DNA of 64,000 nt. It comes from an uncultured bacterium. Its GTDB lineage: Bacteria > Patescibacteriota > Minisyncoccia > Phycocordibacterales > CAIRYW01. The number at the start of each line of letters is the position of its first letter. Position 1 is the first letter of the stretch. The position numbers were made by a program, and so were the translations under genes. The stretch lies in contig CAIRYW010000027.1 in NCBI GenBank assembly GCA_903882905.1, positions 1,031 through 65,030 of the forward strand. The letters are read 5' to 3'. A model generated the notes under the pieces. It did no database searches, had not been told where the DNA came from, and saw only the letters and a program-made list of their open reading frames with translations. This document shows positions 394 through 32,855 of this stretch, in pieces.

Positions 394-2133
394 ATGATTA
401 TAAATGTAGAACAACTAGAAAAGTTCGTTATCGATTCAGGGTTAATTTCAAAAACTGATTTTGCTATTGCCAAAAAAGAATCAGAAGAAAAAAATCAAAG
501 CATTGGAAAAGTTTTAATAAGCGAAGGTAAAATAAGCGAAGATGATTTTAGCCGAATCAGTGCCTATATTTTAGGAATTCCTTTTGTTGATTTAAATGAA
601 AAAAAATTAGACCTAGATACACTTTCATTAATTCCAGAGCCAATTGCGAGGAAACACAATCTTATTGCCTTTAAGAAAACTGAAACAGAGCTTGAAGTTG
701 CAATGCTTGATACTGACGATCTTTCAGAAATAGATTTCATCAAGAAAAAAACTGGTTTGAGAATTTTACCAAGACTAACAAACGTAGAGTCAATTAAATC
801 AGGAATACTTCAATATCAAAAAAGTCTTAAAGCAGATTTCGGAGACATTATTAAGACTGAATCAGATTCTCTCCCAACTCATTCAACTGATGATAGTGCG
901 GATGCTTTAAAGAAAATGGCGGAAGATGTTCCTGTGGTTCGAATCGTAGACACTCTACTCAAGCATGCTATTTTACAATCTGCTTCTGATATTCACATTG
1001 AGCCGTATGAGAATGAAGTCATTATCCGTTATCGGGTGGATGGAATACTTCATGATGTTATGATCTTGCCAAAAAATACCGGAGCGGGTATTACCGCTAG
1101 AATTAAAGTTCTTTCAAGTCTTAAGTTAGATGAAAAGAGACTTCCACAAGACGGTAGATTTAAAATTGATATCGGAATTGAAAAAGTTTCTTTTAGAGTT
1201 TCGATGTTGCCAACTTATTATGGTGAAAAAACTGTAATGCGATTACTTCGCGAAAATTCTTCAGGATTTACACTCGAAGGTTTGGGATTTTATGGAGAAG
1301 GTTTAGAAAAAATCCACGAAGCGACAAGACTTACTACTGGAATGTTTTTAACTACAGGACCTACTGGAAGCGGAAAGACAACTACACTTTATACTTTGCT
1401 TGAACTTTTAAACACACCTAATGTAAATATTTCAACGATTGAAGATCCTATCGAGTATCAGATGCAGAGAATCAATCAAACTCAAGTAAAGCCTGAAATT
1501 GGTTTTACTTTTTCCTCAGGATTAAGATCTTTGGTTAGACAAGATCCAGACATAATAATGGTGGGAGAAATTCGAGATAATGAAACAGCATCTCTTGCAA
1601 TTAATGCAGCTCTTACTGGGCACTTAGTGCTTTCAACTTTGCACACAAACTCTGCTGCAGGAGCAATCCCAAGACTTATAGATATGAAATGTGAACCATT
1701 TCTTTTGGTCTCAACAATTAAAATAGTCATTGGGCAGAGGCTTGTGAGAAGATTGGAGAAACCAAAAGATAAATATAAACTTTCTGCATCGGAGTTAAAA
1801 AATCTTATTTCAAAAATCAATGCACCAAAAGTTTTGGAGGTACTTAAAACAGAAAAAATAATTGGTCCAGATGTTGATTGGAAAGATGTGGAGTTTTGGA
1901 AACAAAATCCATCAAAAGAATATCCAGATGGATATCATTCTAGAATTGGTATTTATGAAATTCTTAGAGTCACTCCAACGATTAGGGAACTGATTATGAA
2001 AAATGCTTCTTCGGATGATATTGATATACAAGCAAAAAAAGAAGGAATGCTTTCTATGGTAGAGGATGGAATTGTTAAAGCCGTTAAAGGTTTGACTACC
2101 ATTGAAGAAGTTCTCAGGGTGATTTCAGAGTAA
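394..2133 (+). CDS. pilB: Type IV pilus assembly ATPase PilB (GspE/PilB family)
   Basis: N-terminal GSPII-like domain. Walker A GPTGSGKTT, Asp box, His box (LSTLHTN), typical of secretion ATPases. 579 aa. Confidence 0.9.
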   Translation: MIINVEQLEKFVIDSGLISKTDFAIAKKESEEKNQSIGKVLISEGKISEDDFSRISAYILGIPFVDLNEKKLDLDTLSLIPEPIARKHNLIAFKKTETELEVAMLDTDDLSEIDFIKKKTGLRILPRLTNVESIKSGILQYQKSLKADFGDIIKTESDSLPTHSTDDSADALKKMAEDVPVVRIVDTLLKHAILQSASDIHIEPYENEVIIRYRVDGILHDVMILPKNTGAGITARIKVLSSLKLDEKRLPQDGRFKIDIGIEKVSFRVSMLPTYYGEKTVMRLLRENSSGFTLEGLGFYGEGLEKIHEATRLTTGMFLTTGPTGSGKTTTLYTLLELLNTPNVNISTIEDPIEYQMQRINQTQVKPEIGFTFSSGLRSLVRQDPDIIMVGEIRDNETASLAINAALTGHLVLSTLHTNSAAGAIPRLIDMKCEPFLLVSTIKIVIGQRLVRRLEKPKDKYKLSASELKNLISKINAPKVLEVLKTEKIIGPDVDWKDVEFWKQNPSKEYPDGYHSRIGIYEILRVTPTIRELIMKNASSDDIDIQAKKEGMLSMVEDGIVKAVKGLTTIEEVLRVISE

Positions 2134-2190
2134 GTTTTTGGCATTGTTTCGTAATTTATAAATCCAATAAAAGGTGTTATATTTTTAGGT

Positions 2191-4068
2191 ATGGAAAAAC
2201 CAAATTTCAACAACCCCGAATTTCTCGACAAAAAATATCCAGACCTAGCTGGCTCAAAACCTGTTGAGAGAGCTAGTTTTCAAGCTCGAAGAGACGGAGA
2301 ATCTCCTCATACCAGAGCAGAAAGAGTTGATGCTTACTTAGACAGGCTAGAAAAAGTTTTTAATGCTAAAAATGAAGCAGGAGAAGATCGAGGTTTTGAA
2401 CTTCTGAAACAAATGGTTCTTGATGAATATGTCACCAAACCAGAAGAAATACCAGAATCATACTGGAAACTTCAGGAAAATATTATGCGTGAACGTGGGC
2501 AACTTGGCGACTATCAAAATGCTTCAGAGGAACAAAAAGCAGAAATGAAAAGACAAAACTCCGAAGGAGTGCTTTCTGATCAAAAATCATCTCTTGAACA
2601 GTGGTTAGACTATTTTCATTCCACAGACTCAAATTACATTCCTCGAGAATTAAAATACTGGATTTTTAGAAATGTCATAAAACTTCAAGAATTTGATAAA
2701 GAGAAAAAAGAATTTACAAAAAGATCAAAAGGTACTGTTAAACAATTTCCTGATATTAATTACGAAGCTCTCGGTTATGTTGTTGATGCAGTGATAAAAA
2801 AATATGAAGGAAAACCTCTCGAATGGGAACACGATATCCAACCAGCTGAAAGACAAGTTTTCGAACAACACTTAACTAAAGAAGATTTTTCCAAACTCTA
2901 TGCTTGGGCAAATGAATTAATGAATCCAATTCCTGAGCATCTTCTTCCTGTAAAAGAAGGTAAGTGGAGAAAGTTTGATCAAGACACCGATCCTCATGAA
3001 TTAGTCAAAACTATTCGAGGAAAAGGGACTGGCTGGTGCACAGCCGGTGAGCAAACAGCAAAAACACAATTATCTGCAGGTGATTTTTATGTTTTCTATT
3101 CTTTGGACGACGAAAAAAAACCAACTATCCCAAGAATCGCAATCCGTATGGAAAGTGGAAAAATAGCAGAAGTGCGAGGAGTAGCTTACAAACAAAACCT
3201 CGACCCACACATGGGAAAAGTCTTGGAAGATAAACTCAATGAGTTTCCCGACAAAGATCAATATTTGAAAAAAGAAAGAGATATGCAAAGGCTTACGGAT
3301 ATTGAGAAGAAAACCAAAACAGGAGAAAAACTTTCAAAAACAGAACTGGAATTTATATACGAAATCAACTCTACCATCGAAGGCTTCGGTTATCAAAAAG
3401 ACCCTCGCATTGAAGAAATTAGAAGCAAAAGAAATGTCAAAGAAGATTTGCCAATTCTTTTTGCTTGCGAACCAAGCCAGATTGCCACAAATCAAAATGA
3501 AGTAGATGAAAATACTGTAGCTTACATTGGAAAATGGAACGTAGACATATACAACCAAATCAAACAATATCCAAACATAAAACATATCTACGAATCTTTC
3601 CCAGACAAGAAAATATTTATGATGACACTAGAAACTGACCCAGCAGTAAATTCTCCAGAAACAGCTGAAGCGAAACTAAAAGGAAAATCAATCTATCTAT
3701 CTGACTGGGGAAAAGATATTTTATACAAAACAGAATTCAGTAAGAAAAAAGAAAATTACGAATTGGTAAGGTTTACTGTAGGTGAACTTGGCTTTCCAAA
3801 CGGTGCCACAACAGATGAAATATACGCAAAAGCAGAAACATTAGAATTAGATTTGTGTCCCGCAGAAGTTGGTCCACAACTTCGCTTGTCTTATGAAGGA
3901 AAAGAATGGATGTTGATTGCTATGAAACAAATTACCGACCGCGATGGCTACCCGTGCGTGTTCGACCTGTACGGCGATGGTGCGGGGTTGCCGCTCGATG
4001 GCCGCAATGCCGAGCCAGACTTCAGGTGGCGTTCTGACTTCAAGTTCGTGTTCCTCTCTCGCAAGTAA
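2191..4068 (+). CDS. DGR target (variable) protein. A 625-aa protein with no obvious signal peptide, whose C-terminal about 46 codons are encoded by the variable repeat
   Basis: The 3' end (3927-4065) is a diverged copy of the TR at 4381-4519, differing only at TR adenine positions. The TR is rich in AAC (Asn) codons in the frame of this ORF. Confidence 0.8.
   Translation: MEKPNFNNPEFLDKKYPDLAGSKPVERASFQARRDGESPHTRAERVDAYLDRLEKVFNAKNEAGEDRGFELLKQMVLDEYVTKPEEIPESYWKLQENIMRERGQLGDYQNASEEQKAEMKRQNSEGVLSDQKSSLEQWLDYFHSTDSNYIPRELKYWIFRNVIKLQEFDKEKKEFTKRSKGTVKQFPDINYEALGYVVDAVIKKYEGKPLEWEHDIQPAERQVFEQHLTKEDFSKLYAWANELMNPIPEHLLPVKEGKWRKFDQDTDPHELVKTIRGKGTGWCTAGEQTAKTQLSAGDFYVFYSLDDEKKPTIPRIAIRMESGKIAEVRGVAYKQNLDPHMGKVLEDKLNEFPDKDQYLKKERDMQRLTDIEKKTKTGEKLSKTELEFIYEINSTIEGFGYQKDPRIEEIRSKRNVKEDLPILFACEPSQIATNQNEVDENTVAYIGKWNVDIYNQIKQYPNIKHIYESFPDKKIFMMTLETDPAVNSPETAEAKLKGKSIYLSDWGKDILYKTEFSKKKENYELVRFTVGELGFPNGATTDEIYAKAETLELDLCPAEVGPQLRLSYEGKEWMLIAMKQITDRDGYPCVFDLYGDGAGLPLDGRNAEPDFRWRSDFKFVFLSRK
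3927..4065 (+). repeat. DGR variable repeat (VR), 139 bp
   Basis: Hand alignment to 4381-4519 gives 115/139 identical positions. All 24 differences are at positions where the TR has A. The last 24 nt are identical except one A-to-C. Confidence 0.85.
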
Positions 4069-4380
4069 ACTTTAATTCTTAAACTCTTTGTATTTTTTTG
4101 ATTCTTTAAAACTTTGAATTTTTGATACTTTGAAATTTTTTTTGCTATACTAATTTCGGTTTGGTTAACGAGACGGCTACGGTTTTCTCGAACCTCTCCA
4201 GTTGGCGCATATTGAGAATGCAAATGGCCACGGCTTTTTGCAGAGGATGTGCGTTTTCTTTCAAAAAAAGAAATCAACTTGGTGTGCGATGCTCGAGGAT
4301 TTTCGATTCCAAATAACATACAGCTGAATTTTTGTATTTTTTAAATATTCAAATTGGCAATGGTAAAGATGGCATTGCAT

Positions 4381-4519
4381 ACAAATTACCGACCGCGATG
4401 ACAACCCGAACGTGTTCAACCTGAACAGCGATGATGCGAAGTTGAAACTCAATGGCAACAATGCCAAGCCAGACAACAGGTGGAATTCTGACAACAAGTT
4501 CGTGTTCCTCTCTCGAAAG
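4381..4519 (+). repeat. DGR template repeat (TR), 139 bp, followed by a hairpin (ccgcac ttacaac gtgcgg) and a T-run
   Basis: Invariant partner of the VR. It has 47 adenines, of which 24 are substituted in the VR, and none of the 92 non-A positions differ. It is rich in AAC codons. Confidence 0.85.
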
Positions 4520-4536
4520 TGTTTACTTTTCCGCAC

Positions 4537-4941
4537 TTACAACGTGCGGTTTTTCTTTTCGGGGTTTTCTAGACTTTTTCTCCAGCCACCAAGTATTTTT
4601 CCTATTTCTTCAAGTTTGAGAGCGACTTCCTCATATTGTTTGTGGGAAATGAGTCTGGCTTCCCAAGCTACATGCATTAAAAATTTTAAGGTATCTAAAC
4701 AAAGAATGCATCTGGAGACTTTTTCCGATTTTTTCTCTTTTTCGGTAAAATAGGCTATATATGAAAGTTCCAAAAGATCTAAAAATTTATTTTCAATTCT
4801 CCCGCCAATTGTATAACGTTGGTTTTTTGGAATATGATTAGCAATACTAAGCCAAATCAAATATCCCTCTTTGATTCGTTGGAGAATAGAAGTGTCACCA
4901 CCGAGAGAGAGAGAGAGAGAGAGAGTAGAAGGCTTCGCCAT
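4537..4941 (-). CDS. avd: DGR accessory variability determinant (Avd)-like four-helix-bundle protein (TIGR02436-like)
   Basis: 134 aa. The core …RIKEGYLIWLSIANHIPKNQRYTIGGRIENKFLDLLELSY… resembles the four-helix-bundle / 23S-IVS-protein family typical of Avd. It is encoded antisense to the TR-RT transcript. The N-terminal LSLSLSL is encoded by the (GA)n tract. Confidence 0.6.
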   Translation of the reverse strand: MAKPSTLSLSLSLGGDTSILQRIKEGYLIWLSIANHIPKNQRYTIGGRIENKFLDLLELSYIAYFTEKEKKSEKVSRCILCLDTLKFLMHVAWEARLISHKQYEEVALKLEEIGKILGGWRKSLENPEKKNRTL

Positions 4942-5919
4942 AAATATAAAGATATCATATCTGTAGAAAATTTACTTGCCTCTTGGCGAGAATTTTTGAA
5001 AGATAAGAAAAAGAAAAAAGATGTTGCTGAATTTTCTTTACATTTTTTAGATAATGTTTTTTATTTGCATAATAGTTTGAAGGATAAAACGTATACTCAT
5101 GGTGAATATAAACCGTTCAAAATCTCCGACCCGAAACCTCGTGATATTCACAAAGCTTCGGTTCGCGATAGGTTACTCCACCATGCAATTTACAGAATTC
5201 TATCCCCATATTTTGATGAGAAATTTATTTTTGATTCTTACTCTTGTCGTCTAGGTAAGGGAACGCATAGGGCAATGAATCGTTTTAGATATTTTGCAAG
5301 AAAAGTTTCCAAAAATCATACAAAAACATGCTGGGTACTAAAGTGTGATATCCGTAAATTTTTTGCCAGTATTGACCACCAAATTTTATTTGAAATTTTG
5401 AAGAAAAATATCAGAGACAAAGATATTGTTTGGCTTTTAATACAGGTGATATCAAGTTTTAACACACAATGCAAAACTAATGTCGGTTTACCTCTTGGTA
5501 ATTTAACCTCACAACTTTTGGTAAATATTTATATGAACGAATTTGACCACTTTATGAAAAGACAACTAAAGGTAAAATATTATATTCGTTATGCCGATGA
5601 TTTTGTGATTCTTTCTGAAGATCAAGTTTACCTTGAGAAACTTACCGTACAAATCTATCAATTTTTAGAACAAAAATTAAAACTCTATTTACACCCAAAC
5701 AAAGTGTTTGTTAAAACTTATGCTTCAGGAGTGGATTTCCTTGGATGGGTACACTTTCCAAATCATAGAGTTTTAAGGACAAGTACAAAAAGGAGAATGT
5801 TCAAAAATATTTCAGCTAAAAATTTTTCCTCTTACACAGGACTTTGTGAACACGGAGACGCTCATGAATTATCACAAGAATGTTATAATATTATTAAGAA
5901 AAAAACTGATGAAATTTAA
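4819..5919 (+). CDS. DGR-type reverse transcriptase
   Basis: RT motifs are present, including the YADD box (YIRYADDFVILS). The DGR-specific motif LPLGNLTSQLLVNIY ([I/L]GxxxSQ replaces QGxxxSP) is present. The N-terminus …ENLLASWREFLKDKKK… matches the DGR RT consensus. The size, about 360 aa, is typical. The true start is uncertain, because the ORF-track start overlaps avd on the opposite strand. Confidence 0.85.
   Translation: MVFWNMISNTKPNQISLFDSLENRSVTTERERERESRRLRHKYKDIISVENLLASWREFLKDKKKKKDVAEFSLHFLDNVFYLHNSLKDKTYTHGEYKPFKISDPKPRDIHKASVRDRLLHHAIYRILSPYFDEKFIFDSYSCRLGKGTHRAMNRFRYFARKVSKNHTKTCWVLKCDIRKFFASIDHQILFEILKKNIRDKDIVWLLIQVISSFNTQCKTNVGLPLGNLTSQLLVNIYMNEFDHFMKRQLKVKYYIRYADDFVILSEDQVYLEKLTVQIYQFLEQKLKLYLHPNKVFVKTYASGVDFLGWVHFPNHRVLRTSTKRRMFKNISAKNFSSYTGLCEHGDAHELSQECYNIIKKKTDEI
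4903..4925. repeat. (GA)n dinucleotide microsatellite, about 11.5 units, 23 nt
   Basis: gagagagagagagagagagagag. It lies in the overlap of the predicted 5' ends of avd (minus strand) and the RT ORF (plus strand). Confidence 0.9.
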
Positions 5920-7120
5920 AGTTACATATAAAAATGGCGATAATACAGGTGAAGGGGTTTTTGAAGCTCTTGATAAATTTGAATTGTTTAATGAATTAAA
6001 AAAAGAAGGTCTTTCTCTTATAAAATTTTCAGAAATAAAAAAACATAATTTAAATATCGATATTCCTTTTTTAAGTGCAAATAAAATAAAATTTCATGAC
6101 AGAATTATTTTTGCTAGAAATTTAGGTTCGATGCTCAAAGCAGGACTTCCTCTTTCCAGAGCTCTTCAGGTTATTGAAAAACAGTCCAAGTCGCCCAAGA
6201 TGAAAAGTGTTCTTAACACTCTCATTAAAAATATTGCTGAAGGGAAAACTCTAAATCAATCTCTTTCACTCTTTCCAGAAAATTTTAATTCTTTAGTTAC
6301 ATCAATGGTTAGAGCTGGGGAGGAAAGTGGATCACTTGCCGAATCCTTAAAACTCGTAGCTGATCAAATGGAGAAAAATTATACTTTGATGAAAAAAGTT
6401 AAAGGGGCCATGATCTATCCTGCTATTATCCTTAGTGTCATGGTTGTAATTGGAATTTTGATGCTTGTTTATGTGGTACCGGGTTTGACAGCAACCTTTA
6501 CAGAGCTTCATGCAGATTTACCTTTTTCAACAAAAGTAGTCTTGGGTATAAGTGATTTGCTTCAAAATCATTATATTCTTATGCTTGCTGGTTTAATTGC
6601 AATAATATTTATTTTTATTTCTACGATTCGTACAAAAAAAGGTAAATGGTTTATTGATAGAGCAATTATTAAAATTCCAGTTATTGGTGAAATAGTTGTT
6701 CAAACAAATTCTGCAAGGACCACAAGAACAATGTCTTCACTTCTAGCTTCTGGTGTGGAAGTTGTAAAGTGTGCGCAGATTACCAGAGACGTACTTCAAA
6801 ATTCTTTATATAGAGATGTTATGGAAAAAGTTTCAGTCGCTATCCAAAAAGGGCAACCAATTTCAAAGGTATTTGAAGATTACGAAAGTATTTATCCAGC
6901 TTTTGTTGCGGAAATGGCAAGCGTAGGCGAAGAGACGGGGAAACTCTCTGAAATGTTCGGGCAAACAGCTGAATATTATGAAGAAGAAGTCGAGCAAAAA
7001 ACTAAAGACATGTCGCAGATTGTTGAACCGTTTCTCATGGTAATTATTGGACTTGCAGTAGGTTTCTTTGCTGTTTCTATGATTACTCCAATGTACACAG
7101 TACTTAATAATATTAATTAA
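5846..7120 (+). CDS. pilC: Type IV pilus inner-membrane platform protein PilC (GspF family)
   Basis: Two GspF repeats and 3 TM segments. The probable true start is MKFKV at about 5909, which overlaps the RT stop by a few nt. Confidence 0.85.
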   Translation: MNTETLMNYHKNVIILLRKKLMKFKVTYKNGDNTGEGVFEALDKFELFNELKKEGLSLIKFSEIKKHNLNIDIPFLSANKIKFHDRIIFARNLGSMLKAGLPLSRALQVIEKQSKSPKMKSVLNTLIKNIAEGKTLNQSLSLFPENFNSLVTSMVRAGEESGSLAESLKLVADQMEKNYTLMKKVKGAMIYPAIILSVMVVIGILMLVYVVPGLTATFTELHADLPFSTKVVLGISDLLQNHYILMLAGLIAIIFIFISTIRTKKGKWFIDRAIIKIPVIGEIVVQTNSARTTRTMSSLLASGVEVVKCAQITRDVLQNSLYRDVMEKVSVAIQKGQPISKVFEDYESIYPAFVAEMASVGEETGKLSEMFGQTAEYYEEEVEQKTKDMSQIVEPFLMVIIGLAVGFFAVSMITPMYTVLNNIN

Positions 7121-7657
7121 TTGTTTAAAAAAAATAAATCAAAAATAAAGACCCAGCACCTTTTCCGCTCTGGCGGAAAAGGTGCTGGGTTTAGCTTGAT
7201 CGAAATAATTATTGCATCAGCAGTCATGCTTATTGTTTGGCTTACTGTTTTTTACACTTTTTCGGTACTGACTCAATTTACTTCAAAAAATACAAATTCT
7301 ATAAAAGCTTCTATGCTTCTTGAAGAGGGCAGTGAAGCTCTTCGTTCTCTTAGAGATTCGTCTTGGAAAACAAATATTGCTCCACTTAGTTCTGGTGTGG
7401 ATTATCGACTTTTATATAGTATGTCTACGGATTCTTGGACCATTATTAATGAGCCGTCAATGATTGATGGAAAATTTGATAGAACTTTTTCTCTTTCTGA
7501 TGTTTCAAGAGACTCATCAACTTTTAATGTTGTGTCTTCTGGTGGTGTATTTGATGCAGATAGCAAGAAGGTAGATATAACTGTTTCTTGGTATCAAGGG
7601 AATGCTACAACTAGTGAAAGTTTAGAAACTTATATATTCAATGACTTCAATAAATAA
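7121..7657 (+). CDS. Prepilin-type (class III signal peptide) pilin/pseudopilin
   Basis: G|FSLIEIIIASAVMLIV prepilin cleavage/methylation motif. It has a TTG start. A 17-bp-stem hairpin is encoded inside the leader (7143-7183). Confidence 0.7.
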   Translation: MFKKNKSKIKTQHLFRSGGKGAGFSLIEIIIASAVMLIVWLTVFYTFSVLTQFTSKNTNSIKASMLLEEGSEALRSLRDSSWKTNIAPLSSGVDYRLLYSMSTDSWTIINEPSMIDGKFDRTFSLSDVSRDSSTFNVVSSGGVFDADSKKVDITVSWYQGNATTSESLETYIFNDFNK

Positions 7658-8182
7658 ATGACTAATAACTCAAAACTCAAAATTCATGACTCAGGCTTCA
7701 GTCTCATTGAAATTATTATTTATATTTCTCTATTAGCCATTTTTATTGGGGCCATTACTTGGAGTTTTTCTGTTATTTTTCATTCTTACAATAGGATGAA
7801 AAATGAGCGCGCCGTAGAAAATTCCGCGATGGTTTCAATGGATAGAATAGTTCGAGAAATTAGAAATTCAAAATCTGTTGATTTGGTAAATACAGCAACC
7901 TCAACTCCAAATGGATATTTAACATTAAATAATTTTGATTCATATCAAAATCCTGGAACTGTAAGATTTTATCTTTTAGACAATCGAATTTATGAAGACA
8001 AAAATGGGACAACTTTAGGTCCACTTACTTCAGAAGATACTGATGTTTCATCTTTAGTCTTTAGATATTTCACAAGTGCTAGTTCGACGGGGATAAAAAT
8101 TGAAATGGCAATTCAGGCCTCAAATATTCCTGTGAATAATTTTTATGATTCAGCAATTTTGAGAAATTCATATGAAAACTGA
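7658..8182 (+). CDS. Prepilin-type minor pilin
   Basis: MTNNSKLKIHDSG|FSLIEIIIYISLLAIF, followed by a hydrophobic helix. Confidence 0.7.
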   Translation: MTNNSKLKIHDSGFSLIEIIIYISLLAIFIGAITWSFSVIFHSYNRMKNERAVENSAMVSMDRIVREIRNSKSVDLVNTATSTPNGYLTLNNFDSYQNPGTVRFYLLDNRIYEDKNGTTLGPLTSEDTDVSSLVFRYFTSASSTGIKIEMAIQASNIPVNNFYDSAILRNSYEN

Positions 8183-9608
8183 TAATAAAATTGTAAAAAA
8201 AAATAAAGGGCAGGTCGTCATGGTGACCTTAATATTTTTTATTATTATTTCGCTCACACTTATTTCAGGTGGAACCCTGCCGACAGGAAGTCAGGTAAAA
8301 AATTCAAGCGATTTTTTGAAATCAAAACAAAGTTATATTGCCGCTGATGTGGCAAACGATAATGCGTTTTATATGATAAACAAAGGTCACGAAGTTTCAG
8401 TTGGTGCTACTCTTCCATTTTCCTCTGGAGATCTGTCAGATTCAATAGCTATTACAGATTCGGCAAATAAAAAACAAATAATTACGACTGGAAATTCTAC
8501 TTCAAATACTCGGCTTTCAGAAATAGTTTTGTCCCAAAACTTTGGCTTAAATCTTAAATATGCAATTCAAGCTGGAACGGGCGGGCTAACTATGACAAGA
8601 GGGGCTGTGAACGGGGATGTTTATTCAAACGGGAATATTTCTGGGGGAGAGAATTTAACTATTTCAGGTTCAACGACTGTTGCTTATCGAGATTCAACCA
8701 ACGTCGGTAAAATTATAGGAACTTCAAGCGATTTTAATAAGCCACTCAATATTACAGGAAATGCTTGGGCTCATGAAATTGATTTTACAAAAGTTTTGGG
8801 TACTGGTTTTTGTCAGGTAAAAAATTATTTACTTGATTCATCCGGAAATTCTATAAGTTGTGATACTTCAAAGAGCTCCGATCCAACTTCTTTGAATTTT
8901 CCAATTACAGATACAAATATTTCTGATTGGAAAACTGCAGTCTCAAATCAAACGGATATAGTTTCAGATGTTGATACTTATACAGGAGACATAGATGTGG
9001 GTCACACTGGGACAAGTACTTCGATAAAAAAAATATCTGGAAATTTAACTCTAGCTTGCGATAGTGGAAATCCAGCAAACTTTGGAAATCTTTATGTGAC
9101 AGGGAATATTAATGTAAGTAACGGCTGTCTATTTAATGTAGATGCACTCCATGTCGGAGGAAACCTTTCAATTACAGGAGATGGAATTTTAAATTTAGGT
9201 GAGGTGAGTTTTGTTGGCGGAAGTGTAGCACTTTCCGGTTCAGGAAAAATTCAGCTTGATAGTTCTCTTGGAACTAACAGTGGATACATTATTTCTGGAG
9301 GAATTATGGATTTGTCAGGTAGTGGATCGTTAAATGGTTCTGATGTATCTGGAAGTTTTTTGACTCTAATTACAACAAGTTCAAGCGTAAGTACTGTGAA
9401 TGTTTCCAGTGGTGGTTCTGGTGTTGTTATTTTGGCACCAAATGGAGAAGTTAATCTTTCTAATGGTTCGCTAGGCGGAATAGTTGCTAAGACTGTCAAC
9501 ATTGGTGGAGGAGATTTAACTTATGACTCGAATATGGCGAACATAGTTTTTGGAGGAGTTCCTTTTGGAAAGTGGCATATTCTAGATTGGAGTGAAGTTT
9601 TAAATTAA
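8172..9608 (+). CDS. Large PilX-like minor pilin / pilus tip-associated protein with a Gly/Ser/Asn-rich repetitive (beta-helix-like) C-terminal region
   Basis: The N-terminus KGQVVMVTLIFFIIISLTLISG resembles the PilX N-terminal domain. 478 aa with repeated GN.S.TG / GS.SLNGS segments. Confidence 0.5.
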   Translation: MKTDNKIVKKNKGQVVMVTLIFFIIISLTLISGGTLPTGSQVKNSSDFLKSKQSYIAADVANDNAFYMINKGHEVSVGATLPFSSGDLSDSIAITDSANKKQIITTGNSTSNTRLSEIVLSQNFGLNLKYAIQAGTGGLTMTRGAVNGDVYSNGNISGGENLTISGSTTVAYRDSTNVGKIIGTSSDFNKPLNITGNAWAHEIDFTKVLGTGFCQVKNYLLDSSGNSISCDTSKSSDPTSLNFPITDTNISDWKTAVSNQTDIVSDVDTYTGDIDVGHTGTSTSIKKISGNLTLACDSGNPANFGNLYVTGNINVSNGCLFNVDALHVGGNLSITGDGILNLGEVSFVGGSVALSGSGKIQLDSSLGTNSGYIISGGIMDLSGSGSLNGSDVSGSFLTLITTSSSVSTVNVSSGGSGVVILAPNGEVNLSNGSLGGIVAKTVNIGGGDLTYDSNMANIVFGGVPFGKWHILDWSEVLN

Positions 9609-12238: not shown

Positions 12239-12298
12239 AACAAAATCTCAAAAGCCTAGACACGTCGAATCCGTGAGCTAGGCATTTTTTTATATATA

Positions 12299-12327
12299 TA
12301 ATTCAACTTGGGAGCGAAGCTCCCAAG
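12299..12327. terminator. Bidirectional terminator-like hairpin (aacttgggagc gaa gctcccaagtt)
   Basis: 11-bp perfect stem between convergent genes. Confidence 0.5.
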
Positions 12328-32310: not shown

Positions 32311-32399
32311 AAACCACTAATCACTATCCATTACACCCGCACACTATCTACTATATTCAATCCATTGCTTTTATCTGTGGGGGGGGGTAAAATCTAACT

Positions 32400-32855
32400 A
32401 TGTTAAAAAACTTTTTCTTAGACTGGAAGGGAAAATTATTATTAATTTGTTTACTAGGTATTGGAGGATCAGTTTTATATTTTTCAGATACTCAAATTTC
32501 TAATGCCCAAGCAATGGGAGGTGGGGGATATAGTTGTCCTCCTCCCACTGTTGGTTGGAATGGGACATGTATTTGTCCTGTGGGGGCTGATGCAGCACTT
32601 CAAAAAAGATGCGACCAAGCTCTTCAGGGTAATAAAACTATTGATGCACCCACAAAAAGAATTCCTATCACATCTATAGCTCCTACTTTAAAATCACAAT
32701 GGAGTTATAACGTAAGTTTTGATGCCAATGATTTTAAAGCTGCCCCAACTGATGCACATGGTAATCCTTATGGTTCTAGCCGTATTCCCTCATTGAGTAA
32801 TGTTATAGATTTTAAGAATCTAACGATCGGTATTGTTGTGGGAGTTAAATTTTAA
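32400..32855 (+). CDS. Hypothetical secreted/membrane-anchored small protein
   Basis: N-terminal hydrophobic segment LLLICLLGIGGSVLYF. Cys-containing. 151 aa. Confidence 0.4.
   Translation: MLKNFFLDWKGKLLLICLLGIGGSVLYFSDTQISNAQAMGGGGYSCPPPTVGWNGTCICPVGADAALQKRCDQALQGNKTIDAPTKRIPITSIAPTLKSQWSYNVSFDANDFKAAPTDAHGNPYGSSRIPSLSNVIDFKNLTIGIVVGVKF

Follow-up and report, generated by a model that had tools for sequence, protein, structure and literature searches.

A conserved simple-sequence repeat within the overlapping 5' ends of avd and the reverse transcriptase gene as a possible slippage switch of a Patescibacteria DGR

The stretch of DNA that was analysed, here called the window, is 64,000 nucleotides long and carries a complete DGR with a target gene containing a variable repeat (VR), a template repeat (TR), avd and a reverse transcriptase (RT) gene. 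The target gene (2191-4068, plus strand) encodes a protein of 625 aa with no Pfam match, and its C-terminus is formed by the VR (3927-4066, plus strand), a 140-nt repeat shared with the TR (4381-4520, plus strand). The two copies differ by 24 mismatches over the 140 nt and every one of these was located at a TR adenine (24 of 47 adenines), a divergence that shows past activity only. Given the DGR-type RT, the adenine-only TR/VR differences and the four-helix bundle of Avd, the element qualifies as a DGR on all sequence criteria that were applied. Pattern matching alone revealed a GC-rich hairpin with a trailing run of T (4531-4549, plus strand) that comes directly after the TR, overlaps the stop codon of avd and is likely to be the terminator of the TR transcript. 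It could possibly serve as a terminator common to the TR transcript and the convergent avd; if such a shared terminator is real, RT would need its own promoter inside avd. A scan of positions 3800-6100 against Rfam gave only matches at chance level.

The DGR cassette is situated next to genes resembling those for pilus assembly. Upstream is a gene for a T2SSE/PilB-like ATPase (394-2133) and downstream a T2SSF/PilC-like gene (5864-7120), the ORF start region of which is overlapped by the 3' end of RT, followed by pilin-like genes with N-terminal methylation motifs (the region as a whole spanning 394-9608). The diversified 625-aa target may be pilus-associated.

The avd gene, encoding the DGR accessory variability determinant (4537-4941, minus strand, 134 aa), was identified by a match to Pfam bAvd (E = 1.2e-14) spanning residues 21-123 and by an AlphaFold model (pLDDT 83.5) that forms a four-helix bundle. 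In a fold search with this model the best PDB match was 4DWL, the Avd of a Bordetella phage (TM 0.89, rmsd 1.7), and a sequence search of the PDB with Avd returned nothing meaningful. According to the model, residues 1-15 constitute a disordered leader that contains the repeat described below and helix 1 comprises residues 19-34. The RT gene (4834-5919, plus strand) encodes 361 aa with an RVT_1 match (E = 4e-26) and the motifs LPLGNLTSQ and YADD. The identical 361-aa call is listed as P0001 in our RT set, and an exact look-up of this sequence found no record. About 33 residues at its N-terminus form an extension that is encoded antisense to avd and across the repeat. The conserved start of RT is the ATG at 4834 and not the TTG at 4819; this ATG and the open frame following it were kept in 25/25 close lineages. 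The motif AGAAGG after the repeat was considered as a ribosome binding site for a downstream RT start and rejected, because no start codon follows it. Clear Shine-Dalgarno motifs were absent from most genes in the window. In many genes a TATAAT-like hexamer begins 13-17 nt upstream of the ATG and ends about 7-11 nt before it (e.g. upstream of the ORFs at 394, 12786, 15032, 31438, 50777 and 52959), and this, together with the scarcity of Shine-Dalgarno motifs, suggests that leaderless or short-leader mRNAs are widespread in the organism.

Direct reading of the sequence showed that the 5' ends of RT and avd overlap antisense over 108 nt (4834-4941, unstranded) in a codon-aligned manner, such that each gene contributes 36 codons and Avd codon 37-i lies opposite RT codon i. 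As a consequence of this geometry, the RT ATG at 4834 pairs with the CAT codon for Avd His36 and, reciprocally, the Avd ATG (4939-4941) pairs with that for RT His36. A second minus-strand ATG is present in another frame at 4956-4958; its use was explored with in-silico length variants, and the same second-frame leader occurs in Avd homologues.

Within this overlap, positions 4903-4925 read GAGAGAGAGAGAGAGAGAGAGAG, an unstranded (GA)11.5 simple-sequence repeat of 23 nt with 100% matches, which is the proposed slippage switch and has homologous tracts at 143/152 related junctions. A GA tract of this length and position had been noted in the preliminary description, and it proved to be perfect and no chance feature as judged by shuffling, since a 15-nt GA pattern had 0 expected matches in 100 shuffles of the sequence. 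The two translations that had been assigned to it were likewise correct: on the minus strand it is read as LSLSLSL, residues L7-L13 of Avd counted from the ATG at 4941, and on the plus strand as ERERERE, residues 24-30 of RT if translation starts at ATG 4834 or residues 29-35 if it starts at TTG 4819. There are no other long dinucleotide repeats in the 64-kb window, so that the tract is a perfect and slippable repeat that is rare elsewhere, as is typical of contingency loci. The sole other dinucleotide repeat of at least 10 nt in the window is a (TA)5 of 10 nt at 12291-12300. The only run of G or C of at least 8 nt in the window is a G9 at 32379-32387, which is followed by TAAAAT, 6 nt and the ATG of an ORF (32400-32855) encoding 151 aa with a hydrophobic N-terminus and no Pfam match. 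From its layout, this G9 could be part of a second, phase-variable promoter of the leaderless type.

It had also been claimed that both genes lack an alternative start between the tract and their conserved regions. This was borne out in each case, as no in-frame ATG, GTG or TTG was found between the tract and the DIISVENLL region of the RT core, nor between the tract and helix 1 of Avd. The tract thereby separates the conserved core of each gene from its sole canonical start, a position from which unit changes would be predicted to alter expression, as they do in contingency loci. Because RT and Avd codons are aligned exactly with each other across the strands on either side of the tract, tract length modulo 3 sets both frames. 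With 11.5 units, or with three units more or fewer, Avd would be translated from ATG 4941 and RT from ATG 4834, and both would be on, which is the state of the window. The preliminary description had stated that gain or loss of a single GA unit frameshifts both proteins at once. This stands for the gain of one unit, by which a start codon would be lost to both genes with no other start left, but only in part for the loss of one unit: RT would then be without an ATG, and Avd would be limited to the second ATG (4958), which in silico yields a different leader, MISLYLWRSLL(LS)n. Since Avd would be translatable from 4958 after such a loss, only RT would be certainly off.

A comparison with orthologous DGRs had been proposed as a check on whether the same tract recurs. 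RT homologues were 60-72% identical to the RT of the window. Homologues at about 65% identity all came from Patescibacteria and had in common an N-terminal extension of the form MRNNxNPNQISLFD...(ER)n in which n is variable. Loci were gathered from genome and metagenome collections (80 on contigs of one genome per species, 80 on metagenome contigs and 14 through exact-protein look-ups), and 152 avd/RT junctions were analysable. In the collected Patescibacteria loci, avd was always divergent from RT and directly upstream of it. A simple repeat was located between Avd helix 1 and the RT core at 143/152 junctions, representing about 130 lineages of uncultured bacteria, and the repeat was poly-G in 110 cases, GA in 32 cases and (GT)13 in one case. 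GA tracts ranged from 10 to 37 nt and poly-G tracts from 6 to 14 nt (mode 9-10). In the 459 kb of the loci L001-L080, 72 such repeats were found at the junction and 3 elsewhere. The comparison thus returned the same tract at the same place with differing lengths. The (GT)13, a third repeat type at this site, is from locus L132 (metagenome contig OBEQ011941534.1).

Two subgroups were distinguished by Avd similarity. The close subgroup, defined by a tblastn score of the Avd of at least 110 bits, holds nearly all GA-type loci including the window, and the distant subgroup carries poly-G, usually with an RT ATG of its own downstream of the tract. Two loci (L010 and L038) have compound tracts in which GA is joined straight to poly-G, e.g. 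(GA)8.5 followed by G10, and this structure suggests conversion between repeat types. In addition, one RT cluster at 90% identity mixes GA-type and poly-G-type members (P0094/P0129 versus P0130/P0133). The N-termini of Avd homologues were of three kinds: M[AT][KR]P ahead of between one and six Leu-Ser repeats, a leader in the second frame of the form MISLY..W..LLSLSL, and truncated calls of 102-115 aa.

We examined the codon usage around the tract for signs that both strands are translated. Leu and Ser codons that create a stop codon on the antisense strand (TTA, CTA and TCA) were never used among Avd core codons 1-18, the stretch that the RT extension overlaps, in the close group (0/78), whereas they accounted for 25% at Avd codons 19-100 and for 28% in the distant subgroup, which lacks the overlap (Fisher's exact test, p = 3e-9 and p = 6e-9, respectively). 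Similarly, the Avd His codon opposite the RT ATG was CAT in 25/25 lineages, and CAT makes up 41-61% of His codons elsewhere. The avoidance of antisense stops together with the conservation of CAT indicated that selection acts on the plus-strand ATG and keeps the frame open as far as the tract, also in the lineages that are out of register. The conserved peptide NPNQISLFD was rejected as evidence for a functional RT extension, because it mirrors Avd helix 1 (IKEGYLIW).

For Avd, the codons leading up to helix 1 were examined in the poly-G group. Codon -1, immediately ahead of the helix, encoded Pro in 73/96 lineages with use of all four synonymous codons, codon -2 encoded Leu in 69/96 with several codons, and codons capable of starting translation were almost absent at positions -3 to -6. 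Given that these codons before helix 1 look like coding sequence and that starts are almost absent among them, Avd translation should begin from beyond the tract. Judging from the structure model, an Avd leader of variable length is plausible and a start inside the core would cut helix 1. The other possibility raised in the preliminary description, that one or both genes use non-canonical starts further downstream with the tract left in their 5' UTRs, is disfavoured by the selection acting on the overlap and by the conservation of the Avd codons.

If the tract is a switch of this kind, genomes that are otherwise nearly identical should differ in its length, and this was observed. All comparisons were made on assembled consensus sequences and not on reads. 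Four Woesebacteria contigs (L091-L094) are identical over 6.2 kb except for the GA tract, which is 21, 19, 25 and 25 nt long, respectively; the upstream ATG and the conserved Avd ATG are in frame with RT and Avd, respectively, in the 21-nt allele alone. The contigs L081-L089, one from each of nine samples, differ over 3.8 kb only by G13 versus G14, and the Avd proposed by the gene caller has 107 aa with G13 and 136 aa with G14. A close relative in this lineage, L096, has G9, as does L120, there with a 2-nt deletion beside the tract. A further length difference was found between L161 (G10) and L162 (G9), and in RT clusters at 90% identity many different N-termini occurred on members whose cores are identical. 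The difference between G13 and G14 could in principle be a homopolymer sequencing error, an explanation that does not easily apply to the GA lengths of 19, 21 and 25 nt. Genomes of the orthologous lineages that are otherwise identical thus vary in tract length, in some cases with a change of frame, as expected of a contingency locus. For the strain of the window, a search of metagenome contigs with an exact-flank pattern gave 0 matches to the same strain with a variable tract, and the collections yielded no other copy of it.

The 90%-identity cluster that holds L081-L090 also includes five RTs (P0082, P0139, P0141, P0142 and P0143) with identical cores and several substitutions in the approximately 10 residues between tract and core (e.g. 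ISRSVHIYNN, ISRAVQIYNN and ISPSGNINKN), and in P0143 a stretch of about 10 residues at this place is duplicated. As far as can be judged from these sequences, this looks like a local hypervariable patch beside the tract.

The distribution of reading registers was then compared with the integrity of the ORFs. Across 31 independent close lineages the three register classes were found in the ratio 12:11:8, with no significant deviation from an even distribution (chi-square test, p = 0.66). Avd and RT were coupled, as all lineages with Avd in frame with the conserved ATG also had RT in frame with the upstream ATG, which is due to the geometry being codon-locked on both sides of the tract. Among 132 repeat-bearing representatives (lineage x tract length), the minus-strand ATG beyond the tract was in the frame of the Avd core in 50, was present in another frame only in 81 and was absent in one. 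When one representative per lineage was considered (n = 128), 81 were out of register; their RT cores had a median length of 322-323 codons and their Avd cores measured 116 codons. L120 was the sole exception to intact cores among these 81 lineages, indicating that the out-of-register lineages are not decaying pseudogenes. Out-of-register alleles that are otherwise intact are a further property of contingency loci. The fraction of lineages with an 'off' consensus, about 60%, is high for an element that is kept intact, and this counts against a switch. The second core codon of Avd helix 1 (L20 in the window, where it is CTC) is TTG in 12/31 close lineages and could in these lineages provide an Avd start that is independent of the tract. 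TTG was found in 9/19 out-of-register and 3/12 in-register lineages; the sample was too small for an enrichment to be concluded.

All sequence-level predictions of a slippage switch for the DGR that were tested came out in its favour, and the proposal put forward in the preliminary description is, in our judgement, probably correct. The tract has the sequence properties of a contingency locus in its perfection, its placement, the polymorphism among orthologues and the intact 'off' alleles. It is likely, on these grounds, that Avd and RT are switched jointly by slippage of the tract during replication, as a form of phase variation. Strand slippage during replication would create heritable and reversible subpopulations in which the DGR is enabled or disabled, and phase variation at a simple-sequence repeat (SSR) would in this way act as a stochastic gate on targeted hypermutation. 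In the BPP-1 DGR, Avd is needed together with RT for cDNA synthesis (PMC6182149), and loss of either protein should therefore stop diversification. We infer that slippage occurs at a useful rate in the strain of the window, that out-of-register alleles give no Avd or RT protein and that the arrangement is adaptive.

Other explanations for the tract have to be weighed against this. The principal one is that the RNA polymerase or the ribosome might slip on the tract, such that every DNA allele gives a mixture of mRNAs or proteins of which a constant small share is in frame. Under this model the tract would attenuate expression constitutively and hold Avd and RT at low levels, and the DNA register could drift freely. 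A random register with intact ORFs is exactly what slippage in transcription or translation predicts, and the tracts (G9-14, and GA up to 37 nt) are long enough to hold a whole RNA-DNA hybrid. Homopolymer transcriptional slippage rescues frameshifts in endosymbionts, in dnaX and in IS elements, but efficient slippage is documented mainly for runs of A or T and poorly for runs of G or C and for dinucleotide repeats. The interchangeability of three repeat types would furthermore be left unexplained unless mutability itself is selected. Slippage confined to expression is also opposed by the length polymorphism that occurs at the DNA level in relatives, given which a DNA switch would exist whether or not the RNA slips as well. 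Altogether, we consider this explanation unlikely.

An even lower probability is assigned to the idea that the tract is a non-coding regulatory element, such as a purine-rich ribosome binding site, a promoter spacer or a leader, the length of which tunes transcription or initiation, with both genes beginning downstream of it at non-canonical or unrecognised start codons. In favour of this idea, in the poly-G subgroup a TAnnnT hexamer follows directly after 35/95 tracts and an ATG is located exactly 7 nt further on in 18 of these 35, a layout resembling an RT promoter of the leaderless type whose spacer holds the tract. In some GA-type relatives (L001, L003 and L012) the RT ATG comes right after the tract, and the G9-TAAAAT-N6-ATG arrangement in the window shows the same layout ahead of an unrelated gene. 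At the DGR of the window, however, neither gene has a canonical start on the inner side of the tract, and GA tracts, at 10-37 nt, vary too widely in length to fit a promoter spacer of about 17 nt. The selection on the plus-strand ATG and on the open frame up to the tract, the evolution of the Avd codons between tract and helix 1 as coding sequence, and the loss of part of helix 1 that would result from an internal Avd start all argue in the same direction, making a regulatory role improbable. We regard it as very improbable that the tract has no function at all, being a neutral, self-perpetuating microsatellite or a DNA-structure element (H-DNA or G-quadruplex), with the out-of-register lineages representing recently inactivated DGRs. 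The Avd leader is predicted to be disordered and tolerant of variable length, and (GA)n and poly-G can form unusual DNA structures. Set against this is the presence of a repeat at the same site in 143/152 junctions with RTs that are only 53-68% identical, compared with 3 repeats elsewhere in 459 kb, the occurrence of three different repeat chemistries at one site, and the absence of ORF decay from the 81 out-of-register lineages with the exception of L120.

The slippage switch that we favour resembles several known systems in part. In Helicobacter pylori, oipA, hopZ and sabA carry CT/GA repeats in their 5' coding regions and are classic cases of translational phase variation. As in the window, a perfect dinucleotide repeat is found there a few codons past the ATG and is read as Leu-Ser in an N-terminal leader that is dispensable; the frame shifts when a unit is gained or lost, and the ORF remains intact in 'off' alleles. 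In H. pylori a single surface-protein gene is affected, whereas here two antisense-overlapping genes are involved and a mutagenesis machine would be gated; the relatives of this DGR furthermore use G, GA or GT interchangeably at one site. In Haemophilus influenzae, (TA)n located in the overlapping -35/-10 promoter spacers of hifA and hifB acts on transcription, and as in the window a single dinucleotide repeat controls two divergently transcribed genes. In contrast to hifA/hifB, the repeat of the window is located inside both reading frames and not in a -35/-10 spacer, and the 10-37 nt found in relatives do not fit such a spacer. Poly-G or poly-C tracts in promoter spacers are known from porA and opc of Neisseria and from fim of Bordetella. 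The poly-G subgroup of DGRs is similar to these in that the tract abuts a -10-like hexamer upstream of the RT ATG, and the G9 at 32379-32387 of the window likewise resembles them; the subgroup differs from them in that the DGR poly-G is also read on the other strand as poly-Pro codons of Avd; the tract of the window differs further in being of GA type and within coding sequence. The BPP-1 DGR (mtd-VR, avd, TR, brt) shares with the window element the RT, the Avd four-helix bundle, the adenine-only TR/VR differences and the C-terminal VR, but its avd, TR and brt are co-oriented, without gene overlap or repeat tract. In the DGR literature that was searched (including Wu 2018, Roux 2021 and a 2024 Bacteroides preprint; Paul et al. 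2017 on CPR DGRs was not covered), no link to SSRs or phase variation was found.

The control of DGRs is largely unexplained, and surveys find many DGRs that are apparently inactive. A conserved slippery tract in avd, and in the window also in RT, offers a simple and testable mechanism for such control. The tract also explains why database calls of Avd are inconsistent (102-115 aa versus about 130-140 aa) and why calls of RT begin variously at VENLL, LILFKIEA or MRNN. The arrangement itself is unusual, with a 108-nt antisense overlap of two 5' ends in which each ATG lies opposite a His codon of the other gene and both frames are statistically maintained. If the switch is real, the state of an element would be predictable from tract length modulo 3, and DGR-based mutagenesis with a tunable stochastic switch may be of use in engineering.

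Beyond the window, we think the balance tips slightly towards a large clade of Patescibacteria DGRs with a built-in hypermutable control repeat, in which G, GA and GT would be interchangeable and would always form leader codons of Avd, and in which the subclade of the window would have the codon-locked overlap by which Avd and RT switch together. Should such a clade-wide module exist, the sequence itself could tell whether one of these DGRs is on or off, and targeted hypermutation would be gated by a second, untargeted mutational lottery, a form of bet-hedging on evolvability.
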